Below are positions 43,954 to 61,068 of a stretch of DNA of 64,000 nt, piece by piece. Positions within the stretch are counted from its first letter, which is position 1. Each line of letters opens with the position of its first letter. Source of the DNA: Promethearchaeota archaeon (GTDB lineage Archaea > Asgardarchaeota > Lokiarchaeia > Sigyniarchaeales > SOKP01); NCBI GenBank assembly GCA_048940765.1, contig JBHLOG010000003.1, positions 456 through 64,455 on the forward strand, given 5' to 3'. The translations under genes were made by a program, and so were the position numbers. The notes under the pieces were generated by a model. It worked only from the letters and a program-made list of their open reading frames with translations, searched no databases and was not told where the DNA came from.

Positions 43954-44015
43954 AATATTTGTTTTATAGTTAATTTAATAGTTATTTGAATAAATGAGAA
44001 GATATCTAGTTCAAT

Positions 44016-45365
44016 TCAAGGAAAAATACCTCTTAATTCAATTGCCTTTGCCAATCTTGAAATAGCAATCATATATGAGGCTATTCGTAGCGTAGTCTTC
44101 TGTTTAATTGATAGATCATAAACATCCTCGAATGTATTAACAAGAATATTCTTTAATTCTTGATTAATTCTTTCTAATTTCCAAAAATAACTATGAATAT
44201 CTTGAATATACTCAAAGTACGAGACACATACCCCTCCTGCGTTAGCAAGTATATCAGGAACTATAATTATCCCCCTTTCATTCAAAATATCATCTGCTTC
44301 TGGAGAAGTTGGTCCATTTGCACCTTCTAACACAATTTTACACTTTATTTTATAAGCATTTGATTGCGTTATTTGGTTTTCAATTGCAGCCGGAATTAGA
44401 ATATCACAATCAAGTGTAAGTATATCTTCATTGTTAACAAATTCATAATCCTTATTTTGGAAATTCTTTAAATATTTACCCTTATCTCTCCAATCTAATA
44501 AATTTTTAATATTTAATCCTTTTCCGCAATGCAATCCACCACTAATGTCTGATACAGCAATTATTTTACAGCCTTTCTCGTATAAAATTTTAGCTATATT
44601 CCCCCCAACATTACCAAATCCTTGTACAACAATACATTGGGATTTTAAGTCTATTTTTATTTTGTTACATAAAGCTTCGAGAACGTAAAATAATCCCATT
44701 CCAGTTGCAGTTTCTCTTCCAACTGATCCTCCTATTTCTAAGGGTTTGCCTGTTACTACTCCGGGAACAGCTCTTCCCTTATTCATAGAATAAGTATCCA
44801 TTATCCAAGCCATTATCTGAGGATCTGTGTTAATATCTGGAGCAGGAATATCCATATCCGGACCTATAATATTTATAATTTCTGCAGTGTATCTCCGAGT
44901 TAACCTTTCTAATTCCCCTTTCGATAGTTTAGTGGGATCAACACATATTCCTCCCTTTGCTCCTCCAAGGGGTAGATTTAATAAGCTACACTTCCAAGTC
45001 ATCCAAGTGGCCAAAGCTTTAACTTCATCAAGATTAACATTTGGAGCAAATCTAATGCCTCCCTTTCCGGGACCGCGAACAGTTGAATGTTGTACCCTAT
45101 AACCCTCGAATATCTCAAGATTTCCATCATCCATCTTTATTGGAATTGTTACAATTAAGCATCTTTCAACCCTTTTAAGATAATTTCTTATATTTTTATT
45201 TAATCTCATTTTTTCAGCAACTATATCGATTTGCTTTTTAGCCATTTCAAATGGGTTTGTTTCCGTTAACAAATTTTCCTCAAGTATTTCATAAATTTCA
45301 TTTTCTACAGCATTTTCTAAATCTCTTGGATAAGCAAATTTTACCTGTTCTTCTTTTTCTAACAT
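44016..45365 (-). CDS. gdhA: Glu/Leu/Phe/Val dehydrogenase, glutamate dehydrogenase type
   Basis: GPGKGGIR, GGAKGG, DIPAPD, VQGFGNVG, EGANGP, PDILANAGGV. Confidence 0.93.
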   Translation of the reverse strand: MLEKEEQVKFAYPRDLENAVENEIYEILEENLLTETNPFEMAKKQIDIVAEKMRLNKNIRNYLKRVERCLIVTIPIKMDDGNLEIFEGYRVQHSTVRGPGKGGIRFAPNVNLDEVKALATWMTWKCSLLNLPLGGAKGGICVDPTKLSKGELERLTRRYTAEIINIIGPDMDIPAPDINTDPQIMAWIMDTYSMNKGRAVPGVVTGKPLEIGGSVGRETATGMGLFYVLEALCNKIKIDLKSQCIVVQGFGNVGGNIAKILYEKGCKIIAVSDISGGLHCGKGLNIKNLLDWRDKGKYLKNFQNKDYEFVNNEDILTLDCDILIPAAIENQITQSNAYKIKCKIVLEGANGPTSPEADDILNERGIIIVPDILANAGGVCVSYFEYIQDIHSYFWKLERINQELKNILVNTFEDVYDLSIKQKTTLRIASYMIAISRLAKAIELRGIFP

Positions 45366-45446
45366 ACTCGAATAATATTCAGTTTTGATTTTTTTCTATT
45401 TAATTAATTAGATTATATCTCTTCATTTAATATATGTCGTATAATG

Positions 45447-45533
45447 TTTATAAATTTGTCGAAAGAAGTATTATCATAAAGCCATAATAACGAAACAAAT
45501 TCGGTAAAAGGTAATTCAAGCGAATTTCATTCA
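45447..45533 (-). promoter_or_regulatory. gdhA promoter: TATA box plus three phased CGAA-N5-TTC sites
   Basis: TTTATAAA 45447-45454; sites start at 45460 (half-site), 45491 and 45521. Confidence 0.6.
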
Positions 45534-45572
45534 ATAAAACATTTTGATTTAAAAAATGAATAAGAATTAATT

Positions 45573-46877
45573 TTAGTGTGTAGCACACGAAATACAAGGA
45601 TCAAAAGCTCTAATTATCATTTGAATATTTTTTTTAACCAAATTATAATCACCTGTTTTTTCAAATAGTTCTTGAGCATAATTTGTAATCATACGGTTAA
45701 TAATAGGAATATTGAACTCTGTAGCAACAAAAAGTTTAACTCGATCAATAACATTACTTTTATTAAGGTGGTAGTGATGGAGTAATATCCCCCTTGGTGC
45801 TTCAATAAGACCTATTCCGTCAGATCCTTTAATTGAATCTAAGGATGGAAGTTTTTCTTTAAGATTTAAACAAGGATCATCTAAAATTTGTATCCCTTGA
45901 TAAGATTCGATATACATTTCTATTAAACGTATAAAATTCGTTAATAGTATATTATTTTTCCATTTTTTTTCAAAGGATTCAAAAGAAGTACTAATTTGAT
46001 CAATTCCATAGTTCTCAACAATATTAAAACGAGAAAAGGGACCAACAATTACATTCCTTTTATTTTCGAAATAAAAATCAATTCCACGTAAATCAATTTC
46101 TTTACCAAAGTAAGAAGAATATTTTTGTTTTTCAAATTCAATTACGTTTTTATTATTTTCTTTAAGTCTTAAAGAACCTACATATCTATCATAATTTCCA
46201 TTATTAGTTAATCCTAAAGATATATAATTTGGTATTTCAAATTCTCTTGGAGGAATCTGATCAGCAAATAATTCAATTACTTTTTCTATTATCCATTCTA
46301 AATTAACCAGTGATTTTTGTAAATTTCTTTTAGCCAATGTAATGTTTTTTTGTGAAGGAGAATAGATAATACCTCCTGGAATTGGTGAAAGCAAATGAAC
46401 AGATCTACCACCAAATAATTCATTTATTTCATTTCCAATTTTGATTAATTCATATAAATTGGTTGTTAATTGAGGATTATATTTTACTAATTCGTAAGGA
46501 GATAACAAATTTTGACTAATATTAAAAATTTTCAAGAGATCTGGTAAATTTTGGAAGAAAAAATTCATTGAATGAGATTTTATTAATTCTCCTATCATTA
46601 AAAGGCGTCTTAAAAGAACACTTTGATTTGAAACCTTAATGTCATAAATATCTTCTATTGCTTTACAGCTTGCAATTGCTTGAGATGCGTAACAAAGTCC
46701 ACATATTCGCGAAACTATTTTCGGAATATCTAGTAATTGCTTTCCTATTAAAAAATTTTCAAATCCTCGATATACATCAAATTCAAAATTCACTAATGAA
46801 ATTTCATCATTTTGAACTAAGATTTTTACTTCTCCATGACCCTCAACACGTTGACAAATGTCAACAACTTTCAACAT
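45573..46877 (-). CDS. [NiFe]-hydrogenase large subunit (group 3-like), ending at the L2 His
   Basis: RVEGHG, RICGLC (L1), EAPRG, DPCISCATH-stop (L2). Confidence 0.88.
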   Translation of the reverse strand: MLKVVDICQRVEGHGEVKILVQNDEISLVNFEFDVYRGFENFLIGKQLLDIPKIVSRICGLCYASQAIASCKAIEDIYDIKVSNQSVLLRRLLMIGELIKSHSMNFFFQNLPDLLKIFNISQNLLSPYELVKYNPQLTTNLYELIKIGNEINELFGGRSVHLLSPIPGGIIYSPSQKNITLAKRNLQKSLVNLEWIIEKVIELFADQIPPREFEIPNYISLGLTNNGNYDRYVGSLRLKENNKNVIEFEKQKYSSYFGKEIDLRGIDFYFENKRNVIVGPFSRFNIVENYGIDQISTSFESFEKKWKNNILLTNFIRLIEMYIESYQGIQILDDPCLNLKEKLPSLDSIKGSDGIGLIEAPRGILLHHYHLNKSNVIDRVKLFVATEFNIPIINRMITNYAQELFEKTGDYNLVKKNIQMIIRAFDPCISCATH

Positions 46878-46881
46878 TTTT

Positions 46882-47640
46882 TTACCCTCTAAATTTTGGT
46901 TTTGAAAATCGATAAAAAATACCTGTATAACTTTTAAGCTCCTTTGATAATTTTATCAAACTCAAATAATTAATAAGATTTGAAGTAAAGTCTTTTGATA
47001 CTGAGCCCATACATCCTTCACAAGGAAGTCCTATTGTTATACATTTATGTTCACATCCATCTCTAGTAATTGGACCCAAACACAAAATACCCTTTTTTAA
47101 AAAGCATTTAGGAACCTCTTCATCTAAGCTAATCTCTTCTGGATTTGGATTAATTTTAGATATATTAACTTGGCTATTAATTCCAAAATCTTCTCGAATT
47201 GGGCAAGTTGCACACATATTTTTTTCAGATAACGTAATCTCTTTATTCTCAACCAATTTAATAATACAATTTCCAAGAAGCTTTGAAGGAGGAGGACACC
47301 CTGGAATAATTCCATCAATTTCAACATAATTGGAGATTGGTAATGCTTTTTTTGTATTTGAAAGACTTAAAATTCCACCAAAACTAGCACAGGTTCCTAG
47401 CGCATATACCTTTTTTGTAACTTTTCTTATATTCTGAAGAATTGGGATTTGTGTTTCTTCAGATATACACCCTTCTATCAGAGCAATATCACAATCGTCA
47501 ATCTCATCTATATCTGAAATAAAGTTAAAATACGTTATCCTTGTTCTTTCTAAGAATTGGGGGAAAATATCTAAGGACATAAGAGTTGAGATACATCCAC
47601 TACATGAAGTTAAAGACATTATTATAAATCTACGCTTCAT
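46882..47640 (-). CDS. [NiFe]-hydrogenase small subunit (MvhG-like)
   Basis: SCSGC, EG, GTCASFGG, PGCPP, CATC, CF, CLGPIT..GC, PCEGC. Confidence 0.88.
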   Translation of the reverse strand: MKRRFIIMSLTSCSGCISTLMSLDIFPQFLERTRITYFNFISDIDEIDDCDIALIEGCISEETQIPILQNIRKVTKKVYALGTCASFGGILSLSNTKKALPISNYVEIDGIIPGCPPPSKLLGNCIIKLVENKEITLSEKNMCATCPIREDFGINSQVNISKINPNPEEISLDEEVPKCFLKKGILCLGPITRDGCEHKCITIGLPCEGCMGSVSKDFTSNLINYLSLIKLSKELKSYTGIFYRFSKPKFRG

Positions 47641-50179
47641 ATTTTACATCCTCTTTTAATTTATTAAAGAAACTATTAGAAATTTCAGCAAATTTTACAC
47701 CTTCTACAGCATTCATATGTTCAAGTAATATTCGATCTTTATATTTTGGTGTAATAATATCTTTTAATAATCTAATTTTATTTCCTATTTTTTCAATTCC
47801 ATCAATGTACCGACAAGCATCTTGTCTACAACCAACGATCATTACTCCATCAAAACCCAACTCAAATGATTTAATTATAAAATTAGTATCAATCCTTCCC
47901 GTACATGGAACTCGAATTATAAAAGTATTTGGATTATATGAAATTTTCTTAAGTCCGGCATCATCAGCAGCAGCATATCCACAAGAACTACAACAGAAGG
48001 CAATAATTTTTGGACTTGCTCTAAATTTTGAAAAAGCTTTAATTGTGGCCAATATTTTTTCAGATGTGTCGATATTTAAGTCTATTGCATTAGTAGGGCA
48101 GATACTAGCACATGTACCACATCCCTTGCATTTAAATTTATCTACACTTATTTTATCCGATTCTATTGTAATCGCATTATAAGGACAAATTTTAAGACAT
48201 AATCCACATAAACCACATTTATTTTCATTAATTTCAATTCCGCTAAACTCTGCGATTAGGTGATCCTTCGATAGTAATGAAATGATTTTTAAAGCACAAT
48301 TATTAGCCGTTGAAATTGTAGAATTATAATCCAATGGACCAAAAATTGTACCAACACCATAAATACCAGATGCCAACGTTTCTTCACTCATAAATCCGTT
48401 ATCATCCAAAGTAAAATCCATATATTTTCTTAGATTTTTTAAATCTTTATTAGGGATATATTTTAGATTTAAAATTATTAAATCACTTGGAAATTCGATA
48501 TTATCAGCAACAACATAATTTATATCTTTATTAGTTTCAATAGAAATTTTATTAGCATATAAAAATCTTGGATTAGTTGATCTTAATAAAATCTCATCCT
48601 TATTTTTCAGTCTACTTAAATCATAAAAAACATTAACTTCGCAATCAGGATTTCTTATTTTTATATCTTCAATATATTTTTGAGCTAAAATTTCCGAGTA
48701 ATGTGCCAGATATTTTGAAGGCCCTACTTCTTGAATAATAGAAATCGAACTTAAGGGTTTTTTATCTGATAATCTTAAGAGATTTCCTTCAGTAATTCCA
48801 TCAGAAGATAACATTCTTTCAAATTCAGCAGATGTTATTATATTTTTTTGGGGATTATAATGATAATCCTCTAAATCTTCGTATAAATCAGATCCAATCG
48901 CAATAACTTTTGCACCAACCTTAATCTCAATTTTTTCTTCTTTTTGAGTTAAATCTATAGCTTTATTCGCGCATGCACGTTCACAAATTCTACAGTTAAT
49001 ACATTTATTTATATCTCCTTTATCAATTATAGGAGCAAAAGGATAAGAATGTATAAAAGGGATATATATTATTTTTCGATTAGTTAAACCATATTCATAT
49101 TGATTTTGCTTTTGTATACTACAAACTTCAATACATTGTTTACACCCTGTGCATTTTTTCACGTCAACAAAACGAGGTTTTTTAATTAAACTAAGAGTAA
49201 AATTACCTACTTCTCCTGATACATTTTCAATCTCAGTATTAGTATAAATTTTTATATTTTTTTGGTTTGTTAATTCGCTTATTAATTCTGAAATAAAACA
49301 TATTGAACAATCACCCATTTGATGGATTCGATGCCATCTTGCTATTTTACCTCCCAATGTAGGTGATTTCTCAATAAGATAAACCTTAATCCCAGCACGA
49401 GCTAAGTTTAATGCGAGTGTAATACCAGCAATCCCACCACCTAAAATAGCACAACTCTTTTCTACTTCCACTCTTTTTACTTTTACTTTCTTTTGAATAT
49501 ATACGCGCTCAACTGCCGCTTCAATTAATAATTTAGCTTTTTCCAATGAAAGTAAAGGATCTATTTTATTCATTTTGGCTTGATGAACCCAACAACATTG
49601 TTCTCTAATATTTGCTATCTCAATATTTGCACGCTCAATAATATCTTCAAAGATTCGTTCAAAAAGAAGTTGATGCGTCTTTGGGGAACAAGCAGCTATA
49701 ACAATCTTATTTAAAAAATTATCTTTAACCCAATTAATAATTTTTTTAAAATTCTTTTCTTGACATAAATTATCAAAAACTTTTACTGAAACTACTTTTC
49801 TTAATTTATTTATATAATTTTCTAAAGCAGTAATATTAATTACACTTGAAACTTCTGTATTACAATTGCAAATAATTACTCCAATTCGGCTTATTTCGCT
49901 CCCCTTAGTTTCTAAATATTCATCAATATCTTCTCCGGATAAAATCCTTTTGTTCAGATTAATAATTTTTAACACACGTTTACCATCTTCCGTAAGAAAG
50001 TACGATTTTTTGTCTTTACCTATCAATGAACCTATCTTTTTAAGATGAAAATTTAGTTGTCCAGTTGTTTCTAAACCAAGTCTTTCCATTAAATCTGTAT
50101 AAGGGATATAACCCTCCTTTTCTAAAAGCAATAAGATTTTTCTCCTAAATGGATGAGATAAAATTGAATATATATCCAC
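47630..50179 (-). CDS. Fusion: ArsR-like winged helix, HdrA-like flavoprotein (degenerate core), MvhD
   Basis: LSHPFRRKILLLL...YTDLMERLG..TGQLNFHLKK...YFLTEDG; then IICNC, AACSP, NIREQC, GGGIAG, DCSIC, two ferredoxin pairs; C-terminal AFCCSSC, VPCTGR, GCRQDACRY. Confidence 0.85.
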   Translation of the reverse strand: MDIYSILSHPFRRKILLLLEKEGYIPYTDLMERLGLETTGQLNFHLKKIGSLIGKDKKSYFLTEDGKRVLKIINLNKRILSGEDIDEYLETKGSEISRIGVIICNCNTEVSSVINITALENYINKLRKVVSVKVFDNLCQEKNFKKIINWVKDNFLNKIVIAACSPKTHQLLFERIFEDIIERANIEIANIREQCCWVHQAKMNKIDPLLSLEKAKLLIEAAVERVYIQKKVKVKRVEVEKSCAILGGGIAGITLALNLARAGIKVYLIEKSPTLGGKIARWHRIHQMGDCSICFISELISELTNQKNIKIYTNTEIENVSGEVGNFTLSLIKKPRFVDVKKCTGCKQCIEVCSIQKQNQYEYGLTNRKIIYIPFIHSYPFAPIIDKGDINKCINCRICERACANKAIDLTQKEEKIEIKVGAKVIAIGSDLYEDLEDYHYNPQKNIITSAEFERMLSSDGITEGNLLRLSDKKPLSSISIIQEVGPSKYLAHYSEILAQKYIEDIKIRNPDCEVNVFYDLSRLKNKDEILLRSTNPRFLYANKISIETNKDINYVVADNIEFPSDLIILNLKYIPNKDLKNLRKYMDFTLDDNGFMSEETLASGIYGVGTIFGPLDYNSTISTANNCALKIISLLSKDHLIAEFSGIEINENKCGLCGLCLKICPYNAITIESDKISVDKFKCKGCGTCASICPTNAIDLNIDTSEKILATIKAFSKFRASPKIIAFCCSSCGYAAADDAGLKKISYNPNTFIIRVPCTGRIDTNFIIKSFELGFDGVMIVGCRQDACRYIDGIEKIGNKIRLLKDIITPKYKDRILLEHMNAVEGVKFAEISNSFFNKLKEDVKYEA

Positions 50180-50248
50180 TTATTTTCTCCCTCCTTTGTT
50201 TAAATTTCATGAAAATGATTAAAATTCTACTTAAATTAAATAAAATTA

Positions 50249-51403
50249 TTATTTATTTGCTATAGAAGTTCTTGATAATGAATTCCATGTTAGCATCTTA
50301 TCTCTCATATTTTTTTTTGTTCGCTTTAACTTCAATTGAGCAAATTGTATTAATTTTTCTTTTAAATCTTTTAAATTGGAGCTATCTAATTTAAATCTTT
50401 TAATTACACCTGCTCGCAGCGCTTTATTGATTATTTCCTCGCCTTTTTTAGTGCGTGTGATTACGGTTGTATATTTATCTTGTGAACCTAACCCTCCAAA
50501 TGAAATATCTGCGTAAATATTTGTAAAATCTTTACAAACACTACAAGCTGGACGTGTATAATCAGTTAATTTTTCAAATGGAATATGAATAATTTTTTGA
50601 GTATTTTTCTTACTTTTTATGTTGATAATTAAATTTTCCTTTATGTTTACCCTTTTAATATTTTCAAACTTAAGTTTAAAGTCTTTTTCGAATTTCTCTA
50701 TCCTTTTTTTGTCAAAAAAGAAATTCTCATAGCAAAATAATCCTAGACAAATCTCGATATTCTCAGATGGAATAATACCTAATTCTTGCATACATCTAAT
50801 TGTATAAATCTGACAAGGTGTGCCTACTAATGCTATTTTTTTAAATTTATAATGTCTTAAATTGGGTAATGAACTTGTATAAGTATGAAATTTTTGTACA
50901 ACTTCTAGTTGAGGAGTTATATCTAATTTGACACCCGAAGTATCAATCAAATCTTTTTTGCTTCTAGCTATTATAGATTCTCTATTAAAAGGTGATGTTG
51001 TTTTTGCCACAATTGCTCCTTCAATCAAATTTTTTTCTATTAAATAATTAATGATAGAGTTCACAACACCTCCATCTGTTCCATATTTTAAAAATTCATC
51101 ATCTGTAGCTTGGCAAGAGTAAATAGTATCTATAAATCCTAAAGGCATTTTTGTACTATCTGAAAAATTATAAGTTTTATTTAATTCCTCATCTAAAATA
51201 TGCGTCTGTGGGCATATAAAATAACAAATCCCACATTCAAGACATTTCTCCTTATTTAAGTATTCAGGAGGCGAATTAGGTTTTTTAAATCCAATTACTT
51301 CATGTTCAATTGAATTGCAAAAACTTACACAACCCCCACATTCTTGACAAATACCAGGCTTATGGACTTCTTCAATTAAATCTTTAAAAGTTTTTATATT
51401 CAT
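50249..51403 (-). CDS. Ferredoxin-FrhB family F420-binding subunit
   Basis: CQECGGC, CLECGICYFICP, DGGVV, VGTPCQ, GLFC, CSVCKDF...DISFG. Confidence 0.88.
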   Translation of the reverse strand: MNIKTFKDLIEEVHKPGICQECGGCVSFCNSIEHEVIGFKKPNSPPEYLNKEKCLECGICYFICPQTHILDEELNKTYNFSDSTKMPLGFIDTIYSCQATDDEFLKYGTDGGVVNSIINYLIEKNLIEGAIVAKTTSPFNRESIIARSKKDLIDTSGVKLDITPQLEVVQKFHTYTSSLPNLRHYKFKKIALVGTPCQIYTIRCMQELGIIPSENIEICLGLFCYENFFFDKKRIEKFEKDFKLKFENIKRVNIKENLIINIKSKKNTQKIIHIPFEKLTDYTRPACSVCKDFTNIYADISFGGLGSQDKYTTVITRTKKGEEIINKALRAGVIKRFKLDSSNLKDLKEKLIQFAQLKLKRTKKNMRDKMLTWNSLSRTSIANK

Positions 51404-51477
51404 TATAAAAAATCACTAAATTAATCTTATAATTATAAAATTTATTATGACTATTTTAATAATTTTTATGATCTCTA

Positions 51478-51495
51478 TGATAAATATAATTGTCA
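51478..51495. promoter_or_regulatory. 18-bp imperfect palindrome TGATAAATATAATTGTCA
   Basis: Matches the TGAYAAA-N4-WTTGTCA family; upstream of the frhB/wHTH-hdrA/hydrogenase operon. Confidence 0.5.
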
Positions 51496-51644
51496 AACTA
51501 TATAAATATGATCATTTTGTCAAAAGTAATAATCACAAAACCTAATCATGACTATCGATAAATTGCATAAAATAAAGTAAAAGGCAAGAATCATATTGGA
51601 ATCAGATCAAACCAAAGACCAAATTAATACATTTTATTTATTAA

Positions 51645-51698
51645 TGACAAATTCATTTGTCAAAATGATTATAATTATTCTTATCAGATTTTTTAAAT
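51645..51698 (+). promoter_or_regulatory. Conserved 54-bp promoter module (18-bp palindrome TGACAAATTCATTTGTCA plus TATA)
   Basis: 44/54 identical without gaps (manual count) to 60883-60936. Confidence 0.65.
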
Positions 51699-51843
51699 TT
51701 CTTCTAATTCATAATTTAATCGGGATAGAGTACAATAATATAATAACACTTACATTTATGTAAATTTTGTTTTTTTTCTCAAAACAAAATCTTGAAATAT
51801 TATTACAAAAAAATATTTGGTGATGATTGGAAGCGTGAATTAA

Positions 51844-53880
51844 ATGTCTGAAAAACAGACCATTGCTAGAATCGGAGTATATATTTGTAGATGAGGAGTT
51901 AATATAGGGGCTAGCATTGATTGTGATATTATTAGAGATTATGTTGAAGCACTCCCAAATGTCATAACTGCTAGAGTAAATGATTTTACTTGTAGTGATC
52001 CAGGCCAAAATATTATCAAAAACGATATTTTGGATTTAAATTTAAACCGAATAGTTGTCGCTGCTTGTACACCAAAAATTCATGAATCCACTTATCGAGC
52101 AGTTTTAGCTGAAGCAGGATTAAATCCATATTATTTTCAAATGGTAAATCTTCGTGAACAATGCTCGTTTACATCTTCAAGTAATAAAAGAGATACTACT
52201 AAAAAAGCTATAAGATTAGTACAAGCAGGTATCAATCGTGCTCGAGAATTAGAGATTGTTCCTCATAAAAAAATTTCAGTAGAGAAATCAGTATTAATAA
52301 TAGGTGCGGGAATTGCTGGAATGAATGCTGCATTAGATTTAGCCAATCAGGGAGTTAGAGTTTTCTTAATCGAAAAAGAGGCAACTATTGGGGGAAAAAT
52401 GGCACAATTAGATAGAATTTATCCTACAGACGATTGTGCTATATGAGTTCTGGCCCCTATAATGGTAAATGCTTCAAAACACCCAAATATAACCCTTCTT
52501 ACTTATAGTGAAATTATTGGATTTAGTGGTATTCCTGGTAAATATAATATTAAAATAAAGAAAAATCCACGTTATGTTAATGAAAAAAAGTGTACTGGAT
52601 GTGGATTATGTACCACAAAATGTCCTATAACAGTACCTAATGAATTCAATCGAGGTATTGGTGAACGTGGTGCAATCTATATACCGTTTCCTCAAGCTGT
52701 ACCTAAAATTGCGATAATTGATAAAAGTGTGTGTATAGAATGTAAAAATTGTCAAAGATTGTGTCAAGCAGAAGCAATTGATTTTGATCAGGTACCAGAA
52801 TTTATTGATATAAGCGTAGGTGCTGTAATAATTGCCACAGGATGGGATGAGTATCCAATTATGAAAAATAATGATTATAGATATGGAATTTATCCGGATG
52901 TAATTACTCAAATAGAATTAGAGCGAATGTTAAGTCCGGTTGGACCAACAGGAGGTCATGTATATAGAATTTCTGATGGAAAAATCCCAAAAACAGTAGC
53001 TATGATTCAATGTGTTGGTTCGAGATCTTTAAAAGGAAATCCTTATTGTTCAGGAGTATGCTGTAATGTTGCTCTTAAGAATGCTCAACTGTTAAAACAA
53101 GAATATCCTGATATTAATATTGCCATCTTTTATATAGATATGCGTACATGGGATAAAGGGAATGAAGAGTATTATAGAAAAGTGAGAGAAGCAGGAGTTA
53201 TGATGATTCGAGGAAAAGTTGGAGATATACGCGAAGATCCATTTACAAAAAACCTTAAAATTACAGCTTCTTCAACATTAACAAATGATATGATTACTAT
53301 GAATACAGATCTCGTTGTACTGTCAACAGGTATGGTCCCTTCTAAGAATACAATAAAATTAATTGAGACGCTAGGTTTAAGTAAAGATATTAATGGATTT
53401 TTATCTGAAGTTCATGGATGCCTAAAACCTCAAGAAACGAATAATATGGGCATTTATATTTGTGGGTGTGCTGCTGGACCAAAAAATATCCCATATTCGG
53501 TATCAACAGCATTAGCTGCAGCCAGTAAAACATCCACATTACTTTCAAAAGATGCAATCGTCCAAGAATTGATTATTGCTGAAATAAATGAAAATCTATG
53601 TATCGGCTGCCATAGATGTGAAAAACTATGTAATTATAAGGCTGTTATGGTAAATGGAGATAATATTGCAGAAATAGATGATTTGAAATGTAAAGGATGT
53701 GGTGTTTGTGTATCATCATGTCCTGCTAGAGCGATTGATCTTAAATATTATAGAGATAAACAAATTATTGAAGAGATAAAAGGCATTTGTAATACTGAAC
53801 TTGAATATAAAGAAGAATATATTGAATCTATTGAACTTGTTTGGAAAAAGATTGAAGCATTAGCTCCTTATCAAACTTAA
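51844..53880 (+). CDS. hdrA: Heterodisulfide reductase subunit A, selenoprotein with two Sec (U17, U201), 678 aa
   Basis: Single frame from ATG 51844 to TAA 53880 with TGA at 51892-51894 (IGVYICRUG) and 52444-52446 (PTDDCAIUVLAP); both positions are Cys in the neighbouring HdrA paralogues; SECIS-like hairpin follows. Confidence 0.9.
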
Positions 53881-53951
53881 TCTGAAAAGGAATGATCTTC
53901 TCAAAAAAATATTAGTTGAGAGGAGACTAACCCACCGTATGGGTTTTCAGA
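53881..53951 (+). ncRNA. SECIS element (eukaryote/Loki-type, AUGA...GA core) in the hdrA 3' UTR
   Basis: TCTGAAAA/TTTTCAGA basal helix; ATGA 53892-53895; TCTTCTCAA/TTGAGAGGA helix; A-rich loop; GA 53925-53926; side hairpin CCCA-CCGTA-TGGG. Confidence 0.85.
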
Positions 53952-54056
53952 ATAATGTAGAATAATAATTGATTTAAATTTATATCAGCAGTTCAAATTA
54001 ATTTGAAATGATTATAGGATTAGTTATTTTTTTTTGAAGTTAAAAATATTTGTTAA

Positions 54057-55211
54057 TTAAGGTTTTTTCTGCTTGGTTTTTAAAGAAATTAATTTATTAA
54101 ACCAATCTAATTTCTTATTTTTCCACTCAATCGTTTTGTTAAATGGAACAATAAATTGTTCAATTATTCCTTTTGAAAGCATATTGTTTATCACTTTCTC
54201 TCCTTTATCAGTTCTAATTAGGATCATAGAATATCCTTCTGGAGCCCCAGATGCCCCAATACTAATATCTGTAAACCTGCCTGTGAATTCATCACATTCA
54301 TGACAATTATTTCTAACTGCTGGATTTAGAGTTTTAATATCGATTTCAAATTCTTTATTATCTTTAGTTTGAATAAAGAAATTCTTTTTTATCCAAGTTT
54401 TCTTGATATTAGTAGGATCAACATTCGTTTCTTTTTCTAAAATGTCATATAATTGAGAATAAATAAAATTCTCATAACAGAAAAGACCTATAATATATTT
54501 AATAACATGAGCTGGTTTCACGAGCAAAAATTTCATTTTACTAACAGCTCTACATTGGCAAGGAGTTCCAATAAATGCAATTCTTATCTGGTCAATATCA
54601 AATATTTCTTTTTTCAAAAGAATCTCCTGAGGGATGCTGTATAAATTTTTTAAAGGAAATATTTGAGGAGAAATAGAATAACGTGTACCTGCCGATTTAA
54701 ATAAATCTTCTTTATCAAATATAATTTTTGGGACAGGTTCAAAGTTTTCGTTAAATTCTGAAACAATTGCTGCATCAATTTTATGTTTTTCAAATAAAAA
54801 TGTTAGTATTGCTGAAACAACACCTCCATCCTGTCCAACTTTTTCTAATGCTGAGTTTGTTGTTTTAGCAGCAAGAATTTTAGTAATATGCCCAATCTTA
54901 TCTTCAATACAATAAGTATCATTTAATTCATTTAATAATACATTAGTTTGAGGGCAAATATAATAACAAACACCACATTTAGTACAATTATCAACACTTT
55001 TTTCTGATTTAAACTCAGGAATGTATCCCTTCATCTCAATAACATCAAAACTTTGACTCTCGCAATATGCTATGCAAGCTCCACATGCACAACATTTATT
55101 AGTTTTAATTATTTCATTCTGAAGATCCTGAAAATTTTTTACGTTGTTTTGCTCAAGTTTCTGAAACCCTAATTCAGTCATTTTAATTCCTCTTTTTATT
55201 TCTTTTTCCAA
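54057..55211 (-). CDS. Ferredoxin-FrhB family F420-binding subunit
   Basis: CCACGAC, CTKCGVCYYICP, DGGVV, IGTPCQ, GLFC, CHECDEF...DISIG; the true start may be the second Met (MTELG). Confidence 0.88.
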   Translation of the reverse strand: MEKEIKRGIKMTELGFQKLEQNNVKNFQDLQNEIIKTNKCCACGACIAYCESQSFDVIEMKGYIPEFKSEKSVDNCTKCGVCYYICPQTNVLLNELNDTYCIEDKIGHITKILAAKTTNSALEKVGQDGGVVSAILTFLFEKHKIDAAIVSEFNENFEPVPKIIFDKEDLFKSAGTRYSISPQIFPLKNLYSIPQEILLKKEIFDIDQIRIAFIGTPCQCRAVSKMKFLLVKPAHVIKYIIGLFCYENFIYSQLYDILEKETNVDPTNIKKTWIKKNFFIQTKDNKEFEIDIKTLNPAVRNNCHECDEFTGRFTDISIGASGAPEGYSMILIRTDKGEKVINNMLSKGIIEQFIVPFNKTIEWKNKKLDWFNKLISLKTKQKKP

Positions 55212-55672
55212 TTATATTCTAATTCAAATACTCCAGATTTTTTAGAGATTTTTAATTCTCCCAATTCTATAATTGTGTCTGTAAAATCTTTAATTAATTC
55301 TGAAAATTGCTTCCCTTCACTTGCAGAGATGGAGTGTAATTGAAATCTATCGGCTTCAATTCCGATGTATTTTATTAATTTCTTTAAATGTTCCATTCTA
55401 ACTTGAGTGTATTCAAATCCCTTCATATAATGACAATCACCCATATGGCATCCAATAATTAATACACCATCTATTCCATTATTAAAAGCTCTTAAGATAA
55501 AGATAGGCTCAACCCTACTAGAGCACATAACCCTAATAATCCTAATATTTGGCGGATATTGAAACCTAGAAACACCTGCTAAATCTGCACCAGCATAACT
55601 GCACCAATTACAGCAAAAAACTAGAATATTCGGTTCAAATTCATTATTTCTTTTATTTTTAATATTTATCAA
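55196..55672 (-). CDS. mvhD: MvhD/VhuD [2Fe-2S] subunit (all-Cys form)
   Basis: FCCNWCSYAGADLAG, RVMCSSRV, GCHMGDCHY, ISASEG. Confidence 0.93.
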   Translation of the reverse strand: MINIKNKRNNEFEPNILVFCCNWCSYAGADLAGVSRFQYPPNIRIIRVMCSSRVEPIFILRAFNNGIDGVLIIGCHMGDCHYMKGFEYTQVRMEHLKKLIKYIGIEADRFQLHSISASEGKQFSELIKDFTDTIIELGELKISKKSGVFELEYNWKKK

Positions 55673-55689
55673 TAAATATCGCTCCCAAA

Positions 55690-58600
55690 TTAAATAATTT
55701 CATAATCTACTATATCTATATCAGTCAATAAATCAATCATTTTGCTAATTTGAAACTTACTAAAATGATTCTGATCAATAGCTCCGACTGAGCATTCTGC
55801 AACACAAGCTCCACAACCTTTACAAAGAGCTTTAATTATACGTGCTTTTCTTAAACTTACATCATATAAACCCATTTTTTTACGACTTTCAATCAATTCA
55901 ATCGCATTATACGGGCAAATCTCAATACATTTACCGCACCCGATACATTTTTCTTCATTTATATAAGAAGTTATACATTCAGTTTCTATTTCTCCTTTAG
56001 CCATTATTATTGCCGATCTCCCAGCAGCACCATATGCTTGAATAATACTTTCTCCAATCCATTTTGGCCAATGAGCTCCCCCACATAGAAAAATGCCATC
56101 TGTGGCAAAATCTATTGGTCTAAGTTTTGCATCAGCTTCTAAGAAAAATCCATCTTTATTTGTTGATACTTTTAACAATTTTGCTAATTTTTCAGTATCG
56201 TCAAAAGGAACGTTAGGAGTGGCTAATATTAATAAATCTGTATTATATTCAATATCTGTCTGAGCGCTTACATTTTTATATATAATATGGAAGTGATCTT
56301 TTTCATCACTGATTTTGATATCCTCAATTGATTGATACCTTTCATAAGTTGCATTTTTCCGAAGCCCTCGACATAGATTTTCAGCATTTAAATCTGTAAA
56401 TTGAAATTCTCTATATAAAATATGAATCTGCGCATTGGGATTGATATTTAATAATTTTTCAACGTTCTTTAATGCTACTCCACAACAAATATTTGAACAA
56501 TAGGTTTTCATATATTCTCCATCATTAAATCCATCTCTCCTTTGATCTACGCATAATATTATTGTAGCATCTTTAAATTTAGGAATCTCTCTATCGTTCA
56601 TTGCTGTAAATTCTGTTTGAGTAAGAACACGTTTGGGATATCTTTCAGATAAATCTTTCCACTTTATAGTTTTAATTTGCTTTGTTCCTGTAGCTACTAT
56701 TATTGTACCCACATTGATGGTTTGCTCTTTTGAATTTTCTTGAATATTTTTAACTTTAACCTCATAATTTCCAACATAACCTTGGACATCAACAATATCG
56801 GAGTTTAATAAAATATGAACATTAGATTTATTTTTTAAATCATTAATTTGTTGAAGAATTTCATTTTTCGTAATAGGTATATAGTATAAGTCAATAAATT
56901 CAAGTGCACTACCACCAAGAATCGCTCTCTTATCTATAAGATAAACTTCAAATCCTTGATTGGCTAAATTATGAGCAGCTGTAATCCCCGAGATTCCGCC
57001 ACCTATTATTAGAGATGATTGTTTAACTTTAACTTTAATGGTCTCTAATGGTTTTAAATTAATTACTTTTGCTAAATACATTCTAATTAAATCACATGCT
57101 TTTTTAGTTGCCTTTTTAGGTTCATTTTGATGGACCCAAGAATCTTGGTTTCTTATGTTTACTAGTTCAAATAAAAATGGATTTAATCCAACCTCCCTGA
57201 GAGTATTTTTAAAAAGTTGTTCATGTGTTCGAGGGGTACAAGATGCAACTATAAATCTATTAAGATTATATTTAATGATTAATTCTTTAATCAGTTCTTG
57301 TGAATCTGAACTGCATGAATACATATTTTCTTCGACGTGTACTACATAGGGCAATTTAGAAACATAATCTACAACTTCAGAAACATTAACAATCCCTCCG
57401 ATATTGATACCACACTGGCAAACTAAAATACCAACACGAGGTTCATCCTCTAACCTTACTGGTATTTCTGGGGGATATTCTACCTTTTTAATATTTTGAA
57501 ATCTGAAAGGATAAAATCTTTCACTAATTTTAGCTGCGCATGCAGAACCTTCTGCAACTGCCATTTGAATATCATTGGGTTTTTTAGAATAACCAGAAAC
57601 AAATACATTCTTTTTTTCAAGTAAGATGATATCTTCTTCACGAATATAACCTAAATCGTCACAATCTACATTTAAGTGTCTTAAAAGTTCATAGTAAGAA
57701 GGAGTTGGAGATAATGCACTTGCTAAAACGGCTATATCTACTTCAAAAGTTCCAACTTTTCCTTTATCAATATCTTCATAATATAATCTTAATTTTCCAT
57801 TATCTAAATTCTCTTTAATATATGAAACATGTCCATTTATATATTTAACATCATATTCATTCTTACTTTTTTCAATAAATTCATAAAAATTTTTACCTTT
57901 TGCTCTAATTTCCGTATTAAAAATATAGCATTCAATATTTGGATTGTGTTCCTTAACAACAATTGCTTCTTTAGCTGAATTCATACAACAAATTGCAGAA
58001 CAATATTTTTTACATTCTGGATGATGAAAATCTCGAGAACCAACGCACTGTATAAAACCAATCGATTTAGGATGTTTTTTATCGTCTAATCTTATGATTT
58101 GACCCCCAGTAGGTCCATTTGCAGAGAGTAGGCGTTCAAATTGCATGTTAGACAAAACATTGGGAGAGGAACCAGCAAAATTATTATATTTTTCTGGCAT
58201 TTCTTGGTTATTTCCTGTAGCAATAACAATTGCTCCAACATTTAACGTAATTTCTTCTGTTTTTTGTGTAAAATCTATGGCATCTGCAGTACAAACTTTA
58301 GCACAAAGGCCACATATTTTATAATTTAAATATAAACATTTCGAATCATCAATAAGATATATTGGAGGTACTGATGACGGAAAAGGAATGTAAATGGCTC
58401 CTCGAGTTTTTAAATGGGTATCAAATTCGCTAGGAATTCCCCTAACTGGACAAATATTCCCACAATCACCACATCCTTTACAAATTTCTTCTTTTATATA
58501 TCTTGGCTTTTTTATAACTGTAACTGTGTAATTCCCCGCATATCCAGTAATTTTTTTAACATACGAATATGTGAATAATTCTATATTTGGATCTCTATAC

Positions 58601-58812
58601 ACATCAACCATTTTTGGTGCAAGGATGCATAAACTACAATCTAGGGTAGGATATATTTTATCCAATTGTGCCATAGTACCTCCTATCGTTGGTTGAATTT
58701 CGACTAAATATACCCTAAAACCTAACTTAGTTAGATCTAAGGATGCCTGCATCCCTGAAATTCCTCCTCCAATAACCAAAACACTACTCTGCAAATCTGA
58801 CATATAACACAA
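55690..58812 (-). CDS. hdrA: Long two-module HdrA-like flavoprotein (Cys form)
   Basis: Two GGGISG FAD motifs, PTLDCSLC, IQCVGSR..YCSAICC, internal LVCQCGINI/ASCTPRTH, C-terminal ferredoxin. Confidence 0.9.
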   Translation of the reverse strand: MCYMSDLQSSVLVIGGGISGMQASLDLTKLGFRVYLVEIQPTIGGTMAQLDKIYPTLDCSLCILAPKMVDVYRDPNIELFTYSYVKKITGYAGNYTVTVIKKPRYIKEEICKGCGDCGNICPVRGIPSEFDTHLKTRGAIYIPFPSSVPPIYLIDDSKCLYLNYKICGLCAKVCTADAIDFTQKTEEITLNVGAIVIATGNNQEMPEKYNNFAGSSPNVLSNMQFERLLSANGPTGGQIIRLDDKKHPKSIGFIQCVGSRDFHHPECKKYCSAICCMNSAKEAIVVKEHNPNIECYIFNTEIRAKGKNFYEFIEKSKNEYDVKYINGHVSYIKENLDNGKLRLYYEDIDKGKVGTFEVDIAVLASALSPTPSYYELLRHLNVDCDDLGYIREEDIILLEKKNVFVSGYSKKPNDIQMAVAEGSACAAKISERFYPFRFQNIKKVEYPPEIPVRLEDEPRVGILVCQCGINIGGIVNVSEVVDYVSKLPYVVHVEENMYSCSSDSQELIKELIIKYNLNRFIVASCTPRTHEQLFKNTLREVGLNPFLFELVNIRNQDSWVHQNEPKKATKKACDLIRMYLAKVINLKPLETIKVKVKQSSLIIGGGISGITAAHNLANQGFEVYLIDKRAILGGSALEFIDLYYIPITKNEILQQINDLKNKSNVHILLNSDIVDVQGYVGNYEVKVKNIQENSKEQTINVGTIIVATGTKQIKTIKWKDLSERYPKRVLTQTEFTAMNDREIPKFKDATIILCVDQRRDGFNDGEYMKTYCSNICCGVALKNVEKLLNINPNAQIHILYREFQFTDLNAENLCRGLRKNATYERYQSIEDIKISDEKDHFHIIYKNVSAQTDIEYNTDLLILATPNVPFDDTEKLAKLLKVSTNKDGFFLEADAKLRPIDFATDGIFLCGGAHWPKWIGESIIQAYGAAGRSAIIMAKGEIETECITSYINEEKCIGCGKCIEICPYNAIELIESRKKMGLYDVSLRKARIIKALCKGCGACVAECSVGAIDQNHFSKFQISKMIDLLTDIDIVDYEII

Positions 58813-58860
58813 TTATTCAATAAATTTATAAATTTTATATCCCAATCTTGTTAATTTAAC

Positions 58861-60066
58861 CTAAACAAACATTAGTAATTTTCCAATAAAACTTGCTAAA
58901 TCAATCACCTTAATTTTATTTCTAGATTCATTATGCTCTTTATTTAAAGAAAGCTCATTTATGTAACAATTGAAGTGTGTTAGACATTTAGGGCAAGGAA
59001 CAATTAAATAATCTGCTCCAGTATTAAATGCTTCATTAATACGATTTTTTCTTAAAAATCGTGTAGATTCATTGCAATTTGCAAATGCTGAAACACCACA
59101 ACAATTAGCATCATCTTTATTATTTTCCATTTCAATTAATTCTACTCCTGGAATCTCGTTTATTAAGTCTCTTGGAGGATCATATAATTTTCCACCTAAA
59201 CGCCCTATTCGACAAGAATCGTGATAAGTTACCTTAATTTTAAAATTGTAAGGAAATTTAACATTTTCAAGAATTTTTTCTTTAAGAAAAAATTCAGTAA
59301 AATGTAATACTTTAAAATCAAAATCTTTTATTATTTTTGGGTAATCAAATTTCCATGTTCTATATCCTTCAGCGCATCCAATAACGATGGTTTTTACTCC
59401 AGCGTCTCTGTAAAGCTGAGTATTATAATTAGCAAGTTTTGCAAAAGTTTCAATATCACCCCTGCCCCAAAAAACATCATGTCCACAACATTTTTCATTT
59501 AAAACTACTGGTGCGATACCCTTTTCATTAAGTAAACTTATTATTGTTGTAGGTATATCAGTATAGTTGGTATCATATTTATAAAAAAGATCATCCATTA
59601 AAGGCAGGCATCCAATAAAATAAGCAGTTTCACCTGAAGCTGAAGTTTTTAATCCTTTCTTTTTTAGAAAATCTAATTTGTTTGGGTGTAAGGGATTGTT
59701 TGCCATAATTTTCGAAATTAAGGTAAAGATATCATTATGAGTTTCGCATTTTATAATTTTTTCTATTTCAGATTTATTTTTACTATATGCTTTTCTTAAC
59801 TCTAAGATTAATTCAGGTATATTAACACCCTTATTTTCTTGAGTCATAGGACAATAAATTGAACATTGTCCACAAGTGAGACAATTCCAAATATTATTAT
59901 TAGTTATGACTTGTTCTAGTTTTGAGAATATCAAATCTGAAATTAAATTTCTTGGAAAAAAAAGTCCTAGATGAGATAATGGGCATACATTGACACAGCG
60001 ATTACAACTATAACAATAATTAACAAAATTGCCAATATCTTTACATGATAAATCTGAAATTAACAA
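58861..60066 (-). CDS. HdrD-like protein (HdrC-type 2x4Fe-4S plus CCG domains)
   Basis: CYSCNRCVNVCP, CLTCGQCSIYCP, CCG, YHDSC, CCG, PCPKC. Confidence 0.88.
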   Translation of the reverse strand: MLISDLSCKDIGNFVNYCYSCNRCVNVCPLSHLGLFFPRNLISDLIFSKLEQVITNNNIWNCLTCGQCSIYCPMTQENKGVNIPELILELRKAYSKNKSEIEKIIKCETHNDIFTLISKIMANNPLHPNKLDFLKKKGLKTSASGETAYFIGCLPLMDDLFYKYDTNYTDIPTTIISLLNEKGIAPVVLNEKCCGHDVFWGRGDIETFAKLANYNTQLYRDAGVKTIVIGCAEGYRTWKFDYPKIIKDFDFKVLHFTEFFLKEKILENVKFPYNFKIKVTYHDSCRIGRLGGKLYDPPRDLINEIPGVELIEMENNKDDANCCGVSAFANCNESTRFLRKNRINEAFNTGADYLIVPCPKCLTHFNCYINELSLNKEHNESRNKIKVIDLASFIGKLLMFV

Positions 60067-60073
60067 GTTTATT

Positions 60074-60259
60074 TCATCGATAGTGATGTATTGAATATTG
60101 ATTCTCGATTATTAACTCAAAAAATCCACATTTAGAACATTTATACCCACTAGGCCCCTTATGTCTATAAATATAATCGTTTTCTTCTATACTGAATCCA
60201 CAAATAGGACAAAACTCTTTTTCCTTCTTTTGTTCAATCAACTTTTTATTTTCCTCCAA
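60074..60259 (-). CDS. Small zinc-ribbon protein
   Basis: CPICG...CSKCG in 61 aa, directly upstream of the hdrD-like gene. Confidence 0.6.
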   Translation of the reverse strand: MEENKKLIEQKKEKEFCPICGFSIEENDYIYRHKGPSGYKCSKCGFFELIIENQYSIHHYR

Positions 60260-60882
60260 CTTTTAAATAATTTTAATTTTGAAAATTACTTTCTTTACGT
60301 TTATATAAAAGCCTTAAATTGGAAATAATTGTATTGGCAAAGCAGAATATTTAACTTCAGATTAAAATTTATACAACATTAACAATCCTGATTATCAATG
60401 AAATAAATGTTTTTTTGAAATTAAATTATCATCATGATTAAAATGGTAGTCAAAATATAAAAACTTTAACTTTTTCTTATAAATTTCAAAAATCAATAAT
60501 AAGCAGAAGATAATATAAAAGAGTGGGAAATGATCATTCTACCCAATATCAACGAATGAATATACATAATTGATCATTAATGATAATGATCCCACCCACA
60601 ATACCTATATATACAACAATCGAGAGCATGAAAAACAACATCTCTATACCTATTTTCTTATATTTTAAAAAAAATTTAATATATTTTATAATTTTTATAC
60701 CATGGTTTTATTGAAAATAAAAAATTTACTTTGAAATGTGTATAAATATTCTAAAAGTAATTTTTTCTAACTTTTGATAAAAATGTTATTCAAATTAATG
60801 ATAGATAAATTTTGTTAGAAGTAAAAGAAAATAAAAAAATCAAATTTATTCCTTGAATATAAAATTTGACAAAAAAGAAATT

Positions 60883-60936
60883 TGATAAATTTTATTGTCA
60901 AATCGACTAAAATTATTCTTATCAAATTATTTAAAT
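60883..60936 (+). promoter_or_regulatory. Conserved 54-bp promoter module (copy 2)
   Basis: TGATAAATTTTATTGTCA...AATTATTCTTATCA..TTTAAAT; near-copy of 51645-51698. Confidence 0.65.
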
Positions 60937-61068
60937 CCTTTTCAAATCATTATTTAATTAGAGTAAATACAACGCTTCTTAGAGTTGTATATGAAAAATA
61001 AATAAATTATTTTATAAGTTCAATAAATTTAATTGATAAATAATTGATTAGGAAGGTGGATATTAAAA

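Follow-up and report, generated by a model that had tools for sequence, protein, structure and literature searches.

A lokiarchaeal hdrA gene with two in-frame UGA codons predicted to specify selenocysteine, and a single SECIS element directly behind it

The stretch of DNA analysed here (the window) comprises 64,000 nucleotides (nt) of a Promethearchaeota archaeon of the Lokiarchaeia (GenBank assembly GCA_048940765.1, contig JBHLOG010000003.1, positions 456 to 64,455 of the forward strand); positions are those of the window unless another contig is named. On its forward strand lies an hdrA gene whose reading frame contains two TGA codons. Very probably this is one intact hdrA, in which UGA codons 17 and 201 would be read as selenocysteine (Sec) by means of a single Sec insertion sequence (SECIS) element 3' of the gene and the Sec machinery of the host; the insertion of Sec itself we infer from sequence comparison. 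The gene appears to be monocistronic and, judging by its sequence, to encode an electron-bifurcating flavoprotein of the HdrA family. The coding sequence and its two UGA codons are as follows.

51844..53880, + strand: hdrA coding sequence, 678 codons including two UGA (predicted Sec), stop codon TAA; from translation, NF040770 and matches in the Protein Data Bank (PDB)
51892..51894, + strand: UGA codon 17, C-R-U-G motif of the N-terminal Fe-S domain, predicted Sec; Cys13 of 5odc_A and 9sfi_A, and Cys in both paralogues of the window
52444..52446, + strand: UGA codon 201, D-C-A-I-U motif, the canonical Sec site of HdrA, predicted Sec; X in 9sfi_A and Cys197 of 5odc_A

Translation gave a single frame from ATG 51844 to TAA 53880, the internal stops being just the TGA at codon 17 (YICRUGVN) and the TGA at codon 201 (DDCAIUVLAP). 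Under translation table 11, the list of open reading frames (ORFs) holds two fragments of it, 52030-52446 (138 aa) and 52462-53880 (472 aa), and leaves the first 62 codons uncovered. An earlier note, made from the letters of the window alone (hereafter the original prediction), had given this frame with its coordinates and both TGA codons and had remarked on the missed 5' end and the split gene; translation and the ORF list bear it out exactly. The best NCBIfam families were three HdrA models, with HdrA2 (NF040770) scoring 812 bits over model positions 1-645 of 777, and query residues 9-651 matched the PDB chains 9sfi_A (E = 1.1e-210), 5odc_A (6.7e-205), 8rvu_a (4e-193) and 7bkb_A (2e-155). 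Pfam placed a flavin adenine dinucleotide (FAD) Rossmann motif (Pyr_redox_2/NAD_binding_8) at residues 149-196 and Fer4 families (4Fe-4S) at 235-263 and 579-632, and the translation contains a GVCCN motif that aligns with the solved HdrA chains.

Codon 201 aligned in the PDB search to the X of 9sfi_A (DDCAMXILAP) and to the cysteine of NDCSICILAP in 5odc_A, which is Cys197 in the numbering of PMC9012536. Codon 17 aligned to the second cysteine of VCYCG/VCHCG in the solved chains. Both TGAs therefore replace conserved cysteines. We take 9sfi to be the structure entry of the Methanococcus maripaludis Hdr-Vhu-Fwd paper, PMC13518236. That the DCxxU site is a known Sec site of methanococcal HdrA, as the original prediction stated, agrees with this placement and with the published accounts (PMC4989117, PMC13518236).

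The exchange of TGA for cysteine codons was followed in an alignment of 87 distinct full-length HdrA rows. In it, one Sec column nests strictly within another, in the order 201 (U in 78 rows, C in 9), 17 (U in 76, C in 10, G in one), 75 (Sec in 15 rows) and 50 (11), and the invariant Cys15 and Cys198 are Sec in none of the rows. The orthologue alignment proposed in the original prediction as a check does show U and C alternating at both positions. Alternation of TGA and Cys codons extends to columns 50, 75, 260, 297, 406 and 407; in rare rows Sec occupies columns 260, 297, 406 and 407, which are Cys columns of ferredoxin-type and CC Fe-S motifs. Among the HdrA paralogues of the same genome TGA is confined to columns 17, 50, 75 and 201, all four of which are Cys in the Cys paralogues.

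Orthologues were collected in two sets. When 41 genomes (its own and 40 relatives) were searched, 15 of the 25 genus genomes contributed a full-length orthologue each, at 81-100% identity; a sixteenth was partial. Each of the 15 has TGA at codons 17 and 201, and three have extra TGAs (column 112; columns 260 and 297; column 407). The second set, which overlaps partly with the first, held 78 loci from Promethearchaeota/Promethearchaeia relatives (e.g. Loki_b32); both TGAs were present in 36 of its 37 full-length members of the same group. These data bear on a different explanation, in which both TGAs are true stops and the locus is a decaying pseudogene or three separately translated pieces. 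The frame is indeed broken under table 11. However, the TGAs stand at the same Cys-aligned columns throughout both sets but for that one locus, at 76-94% protein identity and with no frameshifts; the first piece would be just 16 codons long, and the SECIS behind hdrA is under structural selection in a genome with complete Sec machinery (see below). There is only a very slight chance that this explanation holds. Contigs from four DNA runs, which derive from many related paralogues, showed no change at either TGA among the 40 differences listed (481 more), and we do not count them as evidence. A look for RNA runs that contain the locus turned up none.

At least four further Sec-HdrA paralogues occur in the same genome, on contigs C29 (four TGAs), C139 (two), C12 (two) and C35 (a partial copy with one); the copy on C29 has TGA at columns 17, 50, 75 and 201. 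Among single variants, the extra TGA at column 112 was found in L037/L073 (one genome under two locus ids), where other rows have S, Q or D, and L104, of the tandem group described below, has a one-row TGA at column 303. Errors of assembly, nonsense mutations and new Sec sites are all conceivable origins of these variants, as of a variant codon 17 in L068 (below).

Behind the stop codon lies a SECIS element of the type named lokiSECIS, composed as follows.

53881..53951, + strand: whole SECIS element, with a lower stem (53881-53887 paired with 53945-53951) around the SECIS proper and a second hairpin; from the minimum free energy (MFE) fold and covariation
53892..53926, + strand: lokiSECIS proper; from the strict pattern, the MFE fold and the published description
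53892-53895, + strand: SECIS core, ATGA (AUGA)
53896-53904, + strand: SECIS 5' stem, 9 bp, TCTTCTCAA
53905-53915, + strand: SECIS apical loop, 11 nt, A-rich, AAAAAUAUUAG / AAAAATATTAG
53916-53924, + strand: SECIS 3' stem, TTGAGAGGA
53925-53926, + strand: SECIS 3' GA
53930..53944, + strand: second small hairpin, ACCCA...UGGGU, then an invariant U run; from the fold and the alignment (helix 3, GGGTTTT invariant)

The SECIS begins 11 nt past the TAA, 2000 nt downstream of UGA 17 and 1448 nt downstream of UGA 201, which corresponds to the single 3' SECIS, about 2.0 and 1.4 kb from the UGAs, that the original prediction had supposed. The MFE fold of 53878-53960 reproduced the 9-bp stem and the 11-nt loop and added the lower stem and the second hairpin; the fold had a z-score of -2.6, with 3 of 200 shuffles equally good. 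A strict SECIS pattern matched eight times in the 4.04-Mb genome, versus 2, 1, 0, 0 and 2 times in five shuffles. Its sole match in the window was 53892-53926, and another lay 470 nt downstream of the four-TGA hdrA on C29, approximately where the SECIS of a tandem would be expected. An Rfam scan of window positions 44000-61000 gave no match at E values up to 1.

The hairpin was present at the same place in all 15 orthologues of the first set. Standard pairs filled 94.9% of the pair cells in their alignment, versus 62% when the partner was slid by one position; six pairs had changed on both sides, and the covariation score was reached by none of 500 shuffles. Since the 15 sequences are related to one another, these figures demonstrate constraint on the structure and should not be taken for a statistic on independent samples. 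In the second set, 35 of the 37 loci passed the pattern, L079 having just 22 nt of downstream DNA. At L039, L044, L069, L076 and L080 (some of which are the same genome twice; the first two also belong to the 15), the TAA has been lost and the frame runs on for five codons to end on the UGA of the AUGA core, where one triplet would be hdrA stop and SECIS core together. The corresponding passage of the 2016 report gives the UGA of the core as a stop for VhuU.1 only (PMC4989117); here it is seen in five loci with a stand-alone hdrA, that is, one without vhuD behind it. The ACCCA..UGGGU hairpin and the invariant UUUU (53930-53951) are kept both in the clade of stand-alone genes and behind the vhuD of its sister group, and may serve either to end the transcript or as a portion of the SECIS.

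The machinery for Sec decoding was looked for in the rest of the genome, with the following results.

C276:12473-13630, - strand: SepSecS (TIGR03531, 479 bits against a cut-off of 225)
C276:13843-13967 (locus L001:1490-1614), - strand: tRNA-Sec, directly upstream of SepSecS
C120: SelD (TIGR00476, 167 bits against a cut-off of 125), with an in-frame TGA of its own (HGUSCK)
C156: EFSec candidate, with EF-Tu domains and aSelB_III (PF21440); scored with TIGR00475
C49: PSTK candidate, best family TIGR03574

All the components that the original prediction had listed as a check (tRNA-Sec, SelB/EFSec, SelD, PSTK and SepSecS) were thus found, PSTK and EFSec as candidates. The tRNA-Sec, inspected by eye, has a UCA anticodon, a 9-bp acceptor stem, a G discriminator, a 4-bp T stem and a 32-nt insertion in the D arm (C276:13919-13950). 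When the insertion was removed in silico, ARAGORN called a tRNA-SeC(tca) of 93 nt that has the archaeal 9/4 fold, its D stem being 7 bp and its D loop 4 nt long; in the window it reported no tRNA. A tRNA-Sec gene was present in 26 of 26 genus genomes searched. Of the 23 loci that could be parsed, 17 have an intron-less spacing and six an insertion of 30-33 nt at the same spot of the D arm, and the acceptor stem shows a compensatory T-A/C-G change among the genus loci. The published tRNA-Sec of Lokiarchaeota differs in that its 31-nt intron lies in the T loop (PMC4989117), whereas the insertion found here lies in the D arm. Two loci, L162 and L163, match the tRNA-Sec up to position 107 at most and might have a T-loop intron. 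With these components, we propose that Sec would be decoded by an archaeal/eukaryote-type machinery (tRNA-Sec, PSTK, SepSecS, SelD and EFSec), one eukaryote-like SECIS 11 nt past the TAA acting over 1.45 and 2.0 kb on both UGAs.

Several observations weigh against this interpretation. The PSTK candidate scored 158 against a cut-off of 290.5 and the EFSec candidate 240.3 against 242.25. The unspliced tRNA-Sec scored 35 bits against an Rfam gathering score of 47, and ARAGORN misses it in the raw genome; the 32-nt insertion in the D arm is what keeps the tRNA under the Rfam cut-off and hides it from ARAGORN. At L084 the SECIS is weaker: counting from the sequence ourselves, we obtained 7 stem pairs out of 9 and a loop of 10 nt. 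Codon 17 of L068 is GGA (Gly), neither TGA nor a Cys codon. Finally, the HdrA scores lie below the curated equivalog cut-offs (NF040770, 812 against 1100; NF041891, 607 against 1300; NF041778, 605 against 1400): as far as its sequence tells, the product is an HdrA-family protein, with NCBIfam scores short of membership in the CoB-CoM heterodisulfide reductase equivalogs.

The Gly codon of L068 also speaks for another possibility, namely that the residues are not Sec at all, UGA being reassigned genome-wide (to Trp or Gly, codes 4 or 25) or read through non-specifically. Against this, among the 1413 ORFs of 300 codons or more the stop is TAA in 1047, TAG in 198 and TGA in 168, and the use of TGA as a stop in these 168 rules out a genome-wide reassignment. 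Moreover, TGA alternates with Cys at eight HdrA columns, the checked exception being column 112, in one row, and of the genome's 36 HdrA-like matches, 26 are free of internal stops. We rate this possibility even lower than that of true stops, and for practical purposes both are excluded.

With the two UGAs read as Sec, the gene conforms in most respects to what has been published. Mariotti et al. (2016) described multi-Sec HdrA.1-4 proteins in Lokiarchaeota with eukaryote-like lokiSECIS elements, one SECIS serving UGAs over about 2 kb (PMC4989117). As in those genes, several conserved Cys columns are occupied by UGA, the canonical one at about residue 200 being among them in every case; the SECIS has an AUGA core, a 9-bp stem, an 11-nt A-rich loop and GA and lies near the stop codon; and the frame ends, as is the rule for them, on UAA or UAG (PMC4989117). 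A survey of Asgard selenoproteomes (ISME J 2024) lists HdrA among five widespread selenoprotein families, and its Type I, eSECIS-like elements with AUGA_GA or AUGA_AA cores resemble those of the stand-alone clade, in which both cores occur (PMC11227280). The protein also resembles the Sec197 HdrA of Methanococcales in its fold over residues 9-651 and in a D-C-x-x-U Sec site beside the flavin (PMC13518236). The Methanococcus HdrA differs in having one Sec, a Cys at the position of codon 17 and a role in methanogenesis, where the lokiarchaeal HdrA has two UGAs, and in using an archaeal-type SECIS (PMC4989117, PMC11227280), where the one found here is eukaryote-like. The gene type is therefore already known, from 2016, and the observation is a correct rediscovery; its additions are modest, consisting of the stand-alone clade with its probable origin by deletion, the nested pattern of Sec sites and a putative D-arm intron of the tRNA-Sec. 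As for annotation, every genus genome searched holds several Sec-type copies of hdrA and gene callers split those that contain UGA, so that Asgard HdrA inventories are undercounted unless UGA is read through.

The arrangement of the locus departs from the published descriptions. According to the 2016 report, all lokiarchaeal hdrA genes precede vhuD and the sole SECIS stands behind vhuD (PMC4989117); according to the 2024 survey, hdrA and frhD are always neighbours, 'almost all' with a common SECIS (PMC11227280). Here, in contrast, the next gene after hdrA is an FrhB-like gene on the opposite strand (54057-55211), no vhuD lies on the hdrA strand, the SECIS comes straight after hdrA and the transcript presumably holds this one gene, unlike the 2016 genes (PMC4989117); a stand-alone hdrA with neither frhD nor vhuD as a neighbour differs likewise from the wording of the survey (PMC11227280). 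Nor is the locus alone in this. A vhuD directly downstream was found at none of 37 loci of the stand-alone group, versus 11 of 11 in the group of 69-74% identity, 9 of 9 in the same-genus group of 72-76% and 14 of 15 in the group of about 51%. In a quick maximum-likelihood tree of 82 rows, rooted at the midpoint, the 38 stand-alone rows form one clade (SH-aLRT, the approximate likelihood ratio test, 99), whose sister is the same-genus tandem group and which is embedded among tandem clades, with bacterial Cys-type hdrA-mvhD tandems across the midpoint root. This nesting points to a stand-alone arrangement that is derived and arose once, as far as the midpoint root allows.

The sister group suggests how it may have arisen. 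There, the SECIS lies 442-451 nt past the hdrA stop, directly behind vhuD (the pattern was found at 6 of 7 same-genus loci), and its lower stem and second hairpin with GGGTTTT are the same as in the stand-alone element. In length the stand-alone HdrA exceeds that of the sister group by about 10 residues, and its last 30 or so residues (…EEYIESIELVWKKIEALAP…) are similar to the C-terminus of VhuD (…ERFINSVEDITKKIQALPP…).

53791..53877, + strand: C-terminal tail, about the last 29 codons, resembling the C-terminal helix of VhuD; boundaries approximate

Local alignments of the tail with five VhuDs scored 32-51, against a mean of 23.4 (standard deviation 4.05, maximum 49) for 500 shuffles, and a forced DNA alignment gave 55-69 identities of 102. 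When a hidden Markov model (HMM) of 37 distinct tails was run against 2026 six-frame pieces from 18 tandem loci, the best domain was the C-terminal segment of VhuD in 14 of the 18. Probably, then, the clade goes back to a tandem of hdrA and vhuD that underwent an in-frame deletion in which the tail and the SECIS of vhuD were retained, a derivation we infer. The deletion would have run from about codon 649 of hdrA to about codon 110 of vhuD, with a Cys codon at both junction sequences. It would have taken out the body of VhuD, including the two Sec codons there, and spared the SECIS, fusing hdrA to the last 25-30 or so codons of vhuD and thereby placing the vhuD SECIS right behind hdrA.

Some of the evidence tells against a deletion: the best shuffle (49) nearly equals the best real tail score (51), the similarities of the tail are short and individually weak (best HMM E-value 2.5e-4), and in an unbiased DNA search the 3' end of vhuD was the best match in 6 of 35 pairs, all with one locus. 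The stand-alone arrangement could instead be ancestral, or have come about by transposition of the SECIS, and both the shortness of these similarities and the rooting of the tree at the midpoint only leave room for that. We consider it unlikely, however, given the nesting of the clade within tandem clades, the Cys-type bacterial tandems across the root, the match of the tail HMM to the same VhuD segment at most of the tandem loci, and a SECIS that, with both flanking helices, can be aligned base for base with that of the sister vhuD. In an hdrA left behind by such a deletion the SECIS can serve the hdrA UGAs alone, vhuD being gone, and its covariation is thus indirect support for action at kilobase range. 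The stand-alone clade would in effect be a natural deletion experiment in which UGA codons and hairpin are under selection in 38 rows, and it supports the 2016 proposal that lokiSECIS elements act across kilobase distances.

Published structures give an indication of what the two residues might do. In a crystal structure, Cys197 is reported to be a ligand of the partner subunit's N-terminal [4Fe-4S] cluster (PMC9012536); in the cryo-electron microscopy (cryo-EM) structure from M. maripaludis, a density that bridges cluster A3 and FAD is held by Sec197 together with a cysteine, and its authors read it as a possible selenylsulfide relay (PMC13518236); and in M. marburgensis, Cys202 and Cys205 bind an unidentified ligand between MvhD's [2Fe-2S] cluster and FAD (PMC13580544). 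The N-terminal cluster, HA3, is described as a shuttle that takes the low-potential electron (PMC12350162, PMC13580544); which N-terminal cysteines ligate it was not found in the open-access texts searched. In the HdrA described here, residue 201 is the second Cys position of the D-C-x-x-C pair. Residue 17 falls within the C-x-C/U-G motif; the mobile N-terminal domain to which this motif belongs houses the 'shuttle' [4Fe-4S] cluster, and of the four cysteines invariant in it, three stand at columns 17, 50 and 75. Sec17 may be a cluster ligand or a free selenol facing Sec201' of the other subunit. We tentatively raise the idea, itself rather doubtful, that the bifurcating flavin and the shuttle cluster are joined by a contact which the Sec residues together line with selenium: in the form with two Sec, Sec17 would meet Sec201 of the other subunit, and in the form with four, all ligands of the [4Fe-4S] cluster would be selenolates. 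If true, the stand-alone clade would show that such a site is selected for even without VhuD, and the nested Sec pattern at the contact of flavin and shuttle cluster would point to a bifurcation step that recent cryo-EM papers call unresolved. A profile comparison of HdrA's N-terminal domain with VhuD gave a weak match (E = 0.095 over 35 columns). A structure paper of 2017 reportedly noted homology between the two.

Two Cys-type HdrA paralogues are encoded in the window, one to either side of the Sec-hdrA. The first (47630-50179, - strand) is an 849-aa HdrA-MvhD fusion with an N-terminal DUF7347 (PF24038, residues 2-72); its gene shares an operon, divergent from the Sec-hdrA, with an FrhB-like gene and those for the small and large subunits of a NiFe hydrogenase (Cys type). 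The second (55690-58812, - strand) is a double HdrA of 1040 aa. Its first unit is without the N-terminal Fe-S domain and its second without the Cys at the 197/201 site, a complementary pattern as in the fused HdrA of ANME archaea, where the units come in the opposite order (PMC9012536). The motifs that the original prediction had read in the two proteins are there: ICNCN and GDCSIC in the fusion, and LDCSLC (first unit) and VCQCG (second unit) in the double HdrA. The further suggestion of the original prediction, that Sec and Cys neighbours could permit selenium-dependent switching, found no support.

In such a scheme, the Sec-HdrA and an adjacent Cys-HdrA would be isoforms exchanged according to selenium supply, as are Vhu/Vhc and Fru/Frc in M. 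maripaludis. Replacement of isoforms depending on selenium is known there (PMC11097638, PMC13518236), and the lokiarchaeal genome resembles the Vhu/Vhc case in holding Sec and Cys versions of related redox proteins (PMC13518236, PMC11097638), side by side in the window. Unlike Vhu and Vhc, however, the neighbours are distant paralogues, 34-36% identical to the Sec-HdrA and of other domain architectures, and do not qualify as isoforms of the Methanococcus kind; the closest Cys HdrAs in the genome reach 42-45%. No member of the stand-alone clade has Cys at codon 17 or 201, and neither the window nor the genome holds a Cys paralogue close enough in sequence and alike in architecture to stand in for the Sec-HdrA. 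Switching between the Sec and Cys forms is quite improbable.

No hdrBC lies on the hdrA strand; a gene for a CCG-domain/ferredoxin protein, HdrBC-like, lies at 58861-60066 in the convergent operon. A second selenoprotein in the window was considered and rejected: the NiFe large subunit (45573-46877, - strand) ends in DPCISCATH and is thus of the Cys type, and there was no other strict SECIS match. Further along the window, 37765-39672 (- strand) encodes a FlpD(MvhD)-ferredoxin-FrhB fusion of 634 aa, and 35701-37137 (- strand) an FrhB-like protein with a C-terminal helix-turn-helix of the TrmB type; the FrhB-like genes of the window number four in all.

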